Shown piece after piece: positions 13,259 through 14,425 of a stretch of 64,000 bases of DNA. The DNA is from an uncultured Prevotellaceae bacterium. Its GTDB lineage: Bacteria > Bacteroidota > Bacteroidia > Bacteroidales > Bacteroidaceae. Location: positions 4,176-68,175 of the forward strand of contig CACZIT010000008.1 in the NCBI GenBank assembly GCA_902781315.1, given 5' to 3'. Under the pieces are notes generated by a model. The model was given only the letters and a program-made list of their open reading frames with translations, did no database searches and was not told where the DNA came from. Numbering within the stretch: the first letter of the stretch is position 1; every line of letters starts with the position of its first letter. A program made the translations under genes and the position numbers.

Positions 13259-14425
13259 CTATTTCAGGTTCTCCTTGAAGAATTGCTCCATTTTGTCGTA
13301 GGGAATGACGCCCGCCACGTCGTCATAGAGGTCTACGTGGGAGGCACCGGGGATAATCAGGAGTTCCTTGTTGCCCTCCTTGGCGCTTTGGCCGACGACC
13401 TTCTTGCCCGTCATGCGCTCGAAGGCATACTCAGAGAAGTAGCGCGAATGAGCCTTTTCGCCATGAATGAGCAGCACGGGATTCTCAATCTCCTGAGCCC
13501 AGCAGAGCAGCGGCTGGTTCATGAACGACTGGCATCCGATGACGTTCCATCCGTCGTTGGAGTTGCCGCTGCGCTCGTGGTAGCCGCGCTTGGTCTTGTA
13601 GTAGGCGTGGTAGTCTTTCACGAACCAGGGAGCATCCTCGGGCAGCGGGTCAATGACGCCGCCTGCGCGCTTATTGGTGCCGGCCTTGAAGTCCTCGGTG
13701 CGCTGTGCGGCCAGTGCGCGGCGCTTCTCCATGCGCTGCTGCGGGGTGTTCTCGCTCTCGAAATAGCCCTCGACGTTCACTTTCGACATGTCGTACATCG
13801 TAGAAGCCACCGTGGCTTTGATGCGCGGATCCAGGGCAGCAGCGTTCACGGCCATGCCGCCGAAGCCGCAGATGCCGATGATGCCGATGCGCTCAGGGTC
13901 TACGTTTTCCTGCACCGAGAGGAAGTCCACGGCAGCCAGGAAATCCTCGGTGTTGATGTCGGGCGACGCCATGCGACGGGGCTCGCCGCCGCTCTCGCCC
14001 GTGAACGAGGGGTCGAAGGCAATGGTGATGAAGCCGCGCTCGGCCATGTGCTGAGCATAGAGTCCGCTCGACTGCTCCTTCACGGCGCCGAATGGCCCGC
14101 TGACGGCCAGTGCAGGGAAGAACCCACCCCCAGCCCCTCCCGAGGGGAGGGGGGCTTGATTACCCTTTGAGGCACTTGTGTCCCCCTCGGGGGACGAAAG
14201 GGGGGCTTTCGGAATATACATGTCGGCTGCCAGTTCAATGCCGTAGCGGTTGCGGAAAGTGACCTTTTTGTGGTCTACCTTGTCACTCTTGGGGAACGTC
14301 TTGTCCCACTCCTGAGTCAGTGTCAGTGTTGTGTTCATATTTTCTTCTGTTTTGGTTTGATTCTTGTTGGTGCAAGCCATGAGCGCTGCGGCCACGAGCA
14401 TTGCTGAAAGTAGTAAGTTCTTCAT
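13259..14425 (-). CDS. Alpha/beta hydrolase lipoprotein with an in-frame palindromic insert
   Basis: AVSGPFGAVKEQ, GICGFGG nucleophile elbow, IHGEKAHS, ASHVDLYD. Start moved to MKNLL. Confidence 0.9.
   Translation of the reverse strand: MKNLLLSAMLVAAALMACTNKNQTKTEENMNTTLTLTQEWDKTFPKSDKVDHKKVTFRNRYGIELAADMYIPKAPLSSPEGDTSASKGNQAPLPSGGAGGGFFPALAVSGPFGAVKEQSSGLYAQHMAERGFITIAFDPSFTGESGGEPRRMASPDINTEDFLAAVDFLSVQENVDPERIGIIGICGFGGMAVNAAALDPRIKATVASTMYDMSKVNVEGYFESENTPQQRMEKRRALAAQRTEDFKAGTNKRAGGVIDPLPEDAPWFVKDYHAYYKTKRGYHERSGNSNDGWNVIGCQSFMNQPLLCWAQEIENPVLLIHGEKAHSRYFSEYAFERMTGKKVVGQSAKEGNKELLIIPGASHVDLYDDVAGVIPYDKMEQFFKENLK
14121..14208. repeat. C-rich/G-rich palindromic repeat inserted in frame in the hydrolase
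   Basis: CCCACCCCCAGCCCCTCCCGAGGGGAGGGG plus TCCCCCTCGGGGGA; encodes APLSSPEGD...APLPSGGAGGG. Confidence 0.8.

Follow-up and report, generated by a model that had tools for sequence, protein, structure and literature searches.

Palindromic repeats lying in frame in genes of a Prevotella-like rumen bacterium: probable miniature forms of a nuclease-associated selfish element

The stretch of DNA analyzed here, a 64-kb window of 64,000 nucleotides from an uncultured Prevotellaceae bacterium (contig CACZIT010000008.1), carries a family of 37-bp palindromes that lie both between genes and inside them. Copies occur in the genes for an alpha/beta hydrolase, a lipoprotein, the transporter FucP and an outer-membrane beta-barrel receptor, and the hydrolase element encodes APLSSPEGDTSASKGNQAPLPSGGAGGGF between YIPK and FPALAVSG. 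An initial annotation, made from the sequence alone, had likened these repeats to Rickettsia palindromic elements (RPEs). The family is real: with at most two mismatches allowed, the core CCCCTCCC-N5-GGGAGGGG matched nine times against 0.02 expected, a count that none of 100 shuffles of the window reached, and a repeat finder grouped the copies at 14121, 32019, 33463, 34309 and 57601 as one family. Seven of the nine core matches are coding, every intragenic copy in the window keeps its frame, and the translations of the four host open reading frames (ORFs) read straight through the elements. Pfam placed the hydrolase among the alpha/beta hydrolases, FucP among the MFS transporters and the receptor among the outer-membrane beta-barrel proteins, and the lipoprotein fell into no family. 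The locus is present in bovine and sheep gut metagenome runs, and the nearest named proteins come from metagenome-assembled genomes of Prevotella sp.

On the G-rich strand, the unit consists of a pyrimidine arm, a 3-6-nt loop, the purine arm GGGAGGGG, 2-3 nt and a second G tract, GGGGGTGGG, an order with the potential to form a hairpin plus a third strand. This triplex-type pattern was matched at seven or more of eight positions by 288 of 293 oriented units, a figure that is partly circular because the same G tract set the orientation of the units. The G-rich strand GGGAGGGGCAGGGGGTGGG also has G-quadruplex potential. Subfamilies differ in loop length and in the C-rich flank (ACCCACCCCC, GCCCCACCCC, GCCTACCCCC, CCTCTCCCCC and others). 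A unit may stand alone, belong to a 36-bp tandem array, nest in the loop of another unit or form half of a compact inverted doublet of ~105-125 bp. There are 65 such doublets, 20 of them intergenic, too few for a comparison of length modulo 3 or of open frames with the genic doublets. A search for solo footprints, with CCCACCCCC and GGGGGTGGG tracts and no hairpin between them, found none, and no Rfam family matched anywhere in the window.

Two further features of unit architecture were observed. A CCTCTCCCCC-type unit sits exactly inside a type-A hairpin loop at 33452-33514 and 34298-34360 of the window and at C1:200149, C1:191413 and C3:83081 elsewhere in the genome, which points to insertion targeted at loops or to spread of the composite itself. 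Several type-B elements (C38:17868-18010, C2:180657-180800, C12:52650-52800 and others) carry one to three extra tandem copies of a terminal 14-mer, ACACCCACCCCCAG, at the left end and mirror-image copies at the right end, such that the palindrome grows in symmetric layers.

As the initial annotation had proposed, we compared host proteins with their orthologues, which for the hydrolase came from a search of 40 related genomes. Hydrolase matches break at query residues 87 and 114 and are contiguous in the target; seven orthologues have 6 residues where the window protein has 30, and two of these, 81% identical to it, read NAKGRL or DTTGKL in place of APLSSPEGDTSASKGNQAPLPSGGAGGGFF. FucP orthologues (L014 and L015, 78-79% identical) comprise 435-436 residues versus 527, lack both inserts and begin ~55 residues later. 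An orthologue of the lipoprotein in genome G005 is without ~27 of the 36 insert residues. Overall, the orthologues free of the hydrolase, FucP and lipoprotein inserts share 78-89% identity with their window counterparts. Alignment of paralogues revealed that the receptor inserts are specific to the window copy; in one paralogue (C5:47881-51210), which carries five hairpins (three elements) in frame, the loop that holds the window receptor's unit is occupied by a full type-B doublet. The orthologue and paralogue comparisons indicate that the intragenic repeats are insertions and not ancestral sequence. Full-length doublets of 115-118 nt are up to 95-97% identical at unrelated loci whose flanks share nothing.

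The hydrolase site offers a closer view of such an insertion. A large protein search recovered the same insert from independent assemblies at 99% identity, and overlapping unitigs of run X1 span the element with no differences; because these sources agree, the element is not an assembly artefact. Metagenome unitigs yielded no clean empty-site allele, and the two metatranscriptome runs located, both tiny, gave no coverage. The protein search also returned a 97%-identical hydrolase with a different loop. In the DNA of that same-species allele (L039:1745-1775 / L040), the flanks are identical and (GAGTTCAAG)x3 plus GGC lies between CCGAAAG and TCCCTGCA, that is, 30 nt of a 9-mer microsatellite versus the 87-nt element at the same junctions. 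Two unrelated repeat classes alternate at one site. Other lineages fill the loop in yet other ways; in one species a different hairpin element lies there, and the loop is empty in its closest relatives. Structure mapping, likewise suggested at the outset, used an AlphaFold2 model built from a shallow alignment (mean predicted local distance difference test score, pLDDT, 64.5), in which strands 64-72 and 103-109 flank the insert, whose residues 75-100 score below 50. Summed unitig depth over the unit (14127-14157) exceeded that over the flanking gene 100- to 400-fold in runs X1, X5, X6 and X10, from bovine and sheep guts. The rumen community as a whole contains the unit in very high abundance.

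A genome-wide census, another step proposed in the initial annotation, covered the 3.52-Mb, 60-contig assembly (54% GC) with a relaxed pattern and revealed 392 hairpins of several subfamilies at 274 loci. Genes outside the window were called with a crude custom codon-usage caller (2458 genes, 85.6% coding). By these calls, 228 of the 392 hairpins lie inside genes, 165 of them with coding sequence in that frame on both sides. Strictly in-frame loci, with at least 80 open codons on each side, number 99, and at 29 more an open frame with weaker coding scores runs across the locus. Approximately 106 host genes carry hairpins. The claim that coding copies outnumber intergenic ones, which stands in the window, gives way genome-wide to rough parity. 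Similarly, the claim that no copy breaks a frame holds for all intragenic copies in the window and must be relaxed for the genome, where 25 loci lie between co-directional ORFs and are candidate broken genes at most. Ten random draws of host genes, eight of which were scanned against Pfam, gave TerC, OEP, MlaD, FAA hydrolase, a CCA-adding enzyme with an HD domain, HlyD, RsgA and KsgA.

Reading phases are strongly skewed (for example 60:5:11), because the consensus of each type-A or type-B doublet has a single stop-free frame per orientation. The open frame specifies nearly the same peptide in both orientations (PTPLPLPVREGS...TPLPHREGQGGGS for type A, PTPNPSRGEGS...NQAPLPSGGAGGG for type B) since the doublet DNA is palindromic. 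Absence of frame-breaking copies is what survivorship would be expected to produce. Within the genus, the unit pattern is patchy: 53 of 151 genomes have it, copy number reaches 48-127 in bursts, and the four same-genus genomes holding the closest hydrolase or FucP orthologues have none. Together with the near-identical doublets in unrelated flanks, this distribution marks the family as mobile or copied.

An important clue to origin came from genes encoding DUF559 nucleases. In the window's genome, PF04480 gave five matches at E 1e-5 or better, each located between inverted hairpin units of matching subfamily (Table 1). Four of the end-unit pairs belong to the hairpin family of the window and the fifth (C1:81445-81759) to another subfamily; the ends of the element at C1:190116-190610 match type-A doublets, and those of the C27 element match type-B-like units. 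Eight of ten DUF559 loci from other genomes of the genus are bounded by terminal inverted repeats of 26-55 nt with the same design, 381-596 nt apart. Across the 151 genomes, 39 have both a type-A/B unit and DUF559, 14 the unit only, 31 DUF559 only and 67 neither (odds ratio 6.0, p 1.1e-6), and DUF559 is present in every one of the 16 genomes with 12 units or more. An alignment of thirteen DUF559 ORFs, both free and embedded, is gap-free at 39-66% identity and shows E.DG..H and RF.N invariant. A phmmer search of the PDB matched the DUF559 protein to 3hrl (E 1.2e-18) and, over 79 residues, to 3r3p, the catalytic domain of I-Bth0305I (E 0.0046). Judging from the sequence comparisons, both the repeats and the nuclease-bearing elements related to them are young compared with speciation.

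Many DUF559 matches in the genus lie in long open frames. Three species have a full element in frame at one site of leuS, the leucyl-tRNA synthetase (LeuRS) gene, and a fourth has one at a different leuS site. Two species have one at a shared site of a superfamily-1 helicase gene, and single cases lie in genes for an ABC-F ATPase, an epimerase and a DegT aminotransferase. In the window's own genome, a GAF-domain (MsrC-like) gene (C1:91405-92394) has a complete, in-frame DUF559 element lodged between FYIV and LLLGPFQG; the resulting fusion has 329 residues, against ~160 codons normally. The only Pfam domains in this fusion are DUF559, flanked by GAF/GAF_2, and a related REase (MTES_1575), with no Hint domain. 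At the in-frame elements that were read, the junctions (...FKI/APSNSP and ...GGVEGA/FTVF) show no intein junction residues.

The first leuS site presents a series of states. Among 133 genes, ~115 are empty there, 14 hold a miniature and 3 a full element. The window's genome has an ORF-less type-B doublet (FKV/APTPKPSRGEGS...NQSPLPSGGDGGG/FTIFTTRAD), and its closest LeuRS relatives, with flanks 94-95% identical, are empty. At the DNA level, different subfamilies occupy the site in different species, and the right junction always falls just before TTCACnATCTT. As far as sequence can tell, a homing cycle of invasion, decay and loss would account for this pattern, and so would a uniquely permissive loop; occupancy may in addition reflect vertical inheritance with losses.

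Table 1. Repeat copies in the window and DUF559 genes in the same genome.
Feature	Position	Strand	Context
Decayed type-B doublet, 87 nt, 29 codons	14119..14205	-	In frame, alpha/beta hydrolase ORF 13259..14401(-)
Intact type-A-like inverted doublet	32019..32134	-	In frame, 306-aa lipoprotein ORF 31819..32739
Composite, 141 nt, 47 codons	33439..33579	-	FucP central cytoplasmic loop, in frame
Long-spacer doublet around FucP start	34285..34489	-	Inner unit coding, outer unit non-coding
Degenerate unit GCTCCCTCTTTGGGGAGGGCGGGGGGAG	42503..42535	-	Read as GGLPLWGGRGE near C-terminus of receptor 42285..45533
Solo unit	44484..44518	-	Loop of outer-membrane protein beta-barrel receptor 42285..45533
Solo type-A unit, non-coding	57599..57640	+	Begins 9 nt past stop of ORF 56772..57590
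Intergenic hairpin, different subfamily (ACCTCCC..TCCCCCC-AAA-GGGGGGA)	58722..58760	.	
DUF559 gene	C27:27153-27470		Intact, free-standing
DUF559 gene	C1:190203-190514		Between type-A ends, one stop codon
DUF559 gene	C1:91663-91980		Open in frame with GAF-domain gene
DUF559 gene	C1:81445-81759		Different hairpin subfamily
DUF559 gene	C10:77718-77840		Truncated

The individual copies in the window vary in completeness. The hydrolase element, which the initial annotation had put at about 30 extra residues, retains the right arm CCCCTCCCCTCGGGAGGGGCTGGGGGTGGGT on the coding strand and has a degenerate left arm. The lipoprotein doublet reads GACTCTCCCCCTG-CCCCTCCC-TATCA-GGGAGGGG-AGTAGT followed by an inverted copy, and as mRNA is predicted to fold into a 36-bp hairpin (-84 kcal/mol, z -8.9). 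In the FucP composite, GGGCCTCTCCCCCAG-CCCCTCCC-CTATA-GGGAGGGT-AGCTTT is nested in the hairpin loop of a type-A unit, with a degenerate inverted partner at 33553-33579. A second nested unit at 34285-34360 is read as a FucP N-terminal extension, and the outer unit of that doublet (34453-34489) is non-coding. The only usable FucP starts, ATG at 34424 and 34397, both lie in the doublet spacer, and the window contains no in-frame start codon downstream of the N-terminal element. The FucP copies match each other at 97% identity over 78 nt. In the receptor, the solo unit has the + strand sequence CCCCTCCCTACTGGGGAGGGT-CGGGGTGGGGCT and is read as SPTPTLPSREGAP. The in-frame copies in the lipoprotein, FucP (twice) and receptor were all as first described, and non-coding copies were recovered where they had been placed, at 34453, 57601 and 58729, the last being a hairpin of a different subfamily.

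The receptor ORF 42285..45533(-) contains, separately, an 8-bp microsatellite (CTTTGTTAC-type) at 43676-43889 that is read as KVTGYQGD repeats. Every third unit is altered, so no stop arises, and the paralogues are without the segment. Microsatellites of this type are also found as non-coding sequence at 4067-4264 and 15629-15708.

Overall, we consider it probable that the repeats represent nuclease-associated palindromic selfish elements and their miniature derivatives, translated in host proteins as Pro/Gly/Ser-rich loops. The 37-bp palindromes would form the structured ends of small selfish DNA elements that make up one family and whose full form, ~0.45-0.6 kb long, has two inverted units around a ~105-130-codon gene for a DUF559 (Vsr-like, PD-(D/E)XK) nuclease. 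ORF-less inverted doublets, solo units and tandem arrays would derive from this form. Copies would land in permissive surface loops, or survive there only, so that the surviving intragenic copies would all lie in the single open frame and be translated through; through the same linkers, a full element would come to be expressed within the host protein, as an additional domain. We infer that the inserts are translated as loops of 12-47 residues because the frame is kept, and removal at the RNA or protein level would be indifferent to stops or phase. The nuclease might drive spread through homing-like break repair or through action on hairpin or triplex ends, and the miniatures might be mobilised in trans or spread by gene conversion. 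Internal junctions shared among miniatures in different genes imply that these were propagated, or converted, as miniatures.

That the elements are moved by their own nuclease is a more tentative proposition, about which we remain nearly evenly divided; it owes its standing to the correlation between unit and DUF559, the subfamily-matched ends and the leuS series. To our knowledge, the DUF559-type nuclease fold is not known as a transposase. Broader and rather doubtful, though worth stating, is the proposal that DUF559 and triplex-type hairpins together form an unrecognised autonomous selfish class. Such elements would colonise reading frames, as in leuS, without splicing, their ends doubling as Pro/Gly/Ser linkers so that the host gene would express the nuclease and its protein stay functional, and their miniatures would be the source of the repeats known as TMECO, PIT and BoxC and would, in this rumen lineage, have remodelled loops in ~4% of proteins.

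Several observations weigh against a nuclease-associated element family. The hydrolase loop accepts unrelated inserts as well as a microsatellite, swapped between strains, and neither the hydrolase nor the leuS junctions show a clear target-site duplication. The symmetric tandem duplications of the 14-nt motif at element ends do not follow from a simple model. Recurrent use of a single loop could arise from tolerance rather than targeting. For the GCCCCACCCC (79 units) and GCCTACCCCC (47 units) subfamilies, which are mostly solo or tandem, no cognate DUF559 gene was found in the assembly. The 14 genomes with units and no DUF559 gene, and the 31 with DUF559 and no A/B-type pattern, tell in the same direction, although the latter may carry other subfamilies. 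The census itself depends on crude gene calls and includes the candidate broken genes between co-directional ORFs.

Some of these points would be accommodated by a model with no dedicated enzyme, in which the triplex- and hairpin-forming units stall replication and provoke breaks, the units are then copied between loci by template switching or ectopic gene conversion, and selection keeps only the in-frame copies in tolerant loops. E. coli TMECO sites have raised local variability with no mobility genes nearby (PMC4666352), the fillings of the hydrolase loop differ by strain and include the 9-mer microsatellite at identical junctions, and both the symmetric 14-nt end duplications and the loop-nested units fit structure-driven rearrangement. 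Enzyme-free copying nonetheless leaves unexplained a conserved, gap-free nuclease ORF between units in many species, as well as the statistical link between unit and DUF559 and the lineage-specific bursts, and we regard it as unlikely.

Slightly less likely again is mobilisation of REP/REPIN-type (repetitive extragenic palindromic) repeats by a Y1 (RAYT-like) transposase, with the DUF559 genes as trapped passengers. The genome does possess three PF01797 genes, the spacer-separated inverted doublets resemble REPINs, and the RAYT gene at C11:78212-78655 is followed by hairpins of similar design with a CTACCCCC-type flank. Yet the repeats at the three RAYT genes differ in sequence, being GTAACCGAGGGTACGAGCGC... 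at C29 and including none of the window hairpin family at C25, and for this reason, that the three PF01797 genes are flanked by other repeats, we rejected Y1/RAYT as the engine. Moreover, DUF559 lies between inverted units with subfamily-matched ends at five of five own loci and eight of ten foreign ones, and unit abundance tracks DUF559. E. coli REPs have GTAG 5' of the hairpin; in the present family it lies 3', and units of types B, C and D lack it. In a whole-genome search at E 1e-3, the window ORF 24156-25184 was not among the PF01797 matches. The C29 locus (C29:39000-39700) merits separate mention: a 147-aa Y1 (RAYT-like) gene has its own inverted repeats there (GTAACCGAGGGTACGAGCGCAGCGAGCACCCCCGG plus a GCACCC..GGGTGC hairpin), making a second, separate repeat system in the genome. 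Finally, intron- or intein-like removal after transcription or translation, leaving the proteins unaffected, has in its favor the very stable RNA hairpins predicted for doublets, which would bring the ends together, and the intein-like niches of full elements in essential genes, but is highly improbable given that removal makes frame and stops irrelevant whereas intragenic copies are overwhelmingly in a single open frame, with no Rfam match in the window, no Hint domain in the GAF-DUF559 fusion and no intein signatures at the junctions.

If nuclease-associated elements are indeed the source of these inserts, the family would be the second case of 'protein-coding palindromes' beside that of Rickettsia, far larger and, as to mechanism, more tractable, in an abundant free-living gut and rumen lineage. 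The widespread TMECO/PIT/BoxC repeats, whose source has been a question since the 1990s, would also gain a candidate enzyme and a candidate origin. About 100 proteins, among them LeuRS, KsgA, RsgA, the CCA-adding enzyme, TonB-type receptors and transporters, appear to have recent loop inserts of 12-47 residues, with consequences for annotation, structure prediction, strain typing and surface-antigen variation. Should the nuclease prove active, it would be a compact structure- or site-specific DNA cutter of possible practical use. The nuclease-plus-hairpin unit has, in our view, a substantial chance of being a new class of element. Full-text searches turned up no account of such elements in Prevotella or Bacteroidales, in agreement with what the initial annotation had supposed for Prevotella-like bacteria, and none of DUF559 as part of a mobile element.

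Among known systems, RPEs and the QMITEs of Coxiella are in-frame repeats that resemble transposable elements of the miniature inverted-repeat kind (MITEs) and are palindromic (PMC10969869, PMC5896051). The present family shares their behavior, being intergenic as well as in frame in unrelated, intact genes whose orthologues lack the repeats, and contributing peptide segments in loops. The RPE-like character first suggested is thereby upheld, with in-frame copies in unrelated Pfam families, insert-free orthologues and near-identical copies in unrelated flanks. The likeness is one of behavior, and membership in the RPE family is unlikely: the sequence is probably unrelated and is G/C-rich (CCCCTCCC/GGGAGGGG stems), the unit is of triplex type, and the host is a free-living rumen Bacteroidota with a 3.5-Mb genome rather than an intracellular bacterium with a reduced one. 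The scale is larger here (~100 host genes), and DUF559 elements offer a candidate autonomous partner, whereas we know of none for RPEs.

The unit design, CCCCTCCC-N3-6-GGGAGGGG-N2-3-GGGGGTGGG, is instead that of TMECO/PIT/BoxC repeats, which are likewise abundant, conserved and linked to local variability. TMECO is an intrastrand triplex motif, CCCTCNCCC-N3-6-GGGNGAGGG-N3-GGGNGAGGG (Holder et al. 2015, PMC4666352); such motifs are widespread, and the 23 copies in E. coli are always intergenic with no associated mobility gene (PMC4666352). In contrast, 99-128 of the 274 loci described here (~40%) lie in open frames, departing from a strictly intergenic rule, and units bracket nuclease genes. 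REPIN-RAYT systems (PMC3116915, PMC3337134) also feature spaced inverted hairpin doublets, within-genome populations and a small nuclease-type gene flanked by its own repeats, but REPINs are extragenic, the gene flanked here encodes a PD-(D/E)XK DUF559 protein and not a Y1 enzyme, and this genome's own RAYT genes carry other repeats. As in MITEs, short non-coding copies have terminal inverted repeats in common with a longer protein-coding element. The closest enzymatic parallel may be with I-Bth0305I and the EDxHD homing endonucleases (PDB 3r3p, PMC3239194; 'fractured genes', PMC2677866), whose nuclease domain is homologous. Like homing endonuclease genes, the full elements patchily occupy a conserved leuS site, in intact and degenerate forms with empty close relatives, and like inteins they reside in frame in host genes. 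Unlike either, the nuclease has no intron or intein around it and the insert appears to stay in the protein, and the elements are set apart by structured terminal inverted repeats and many dispersed miniature copies.

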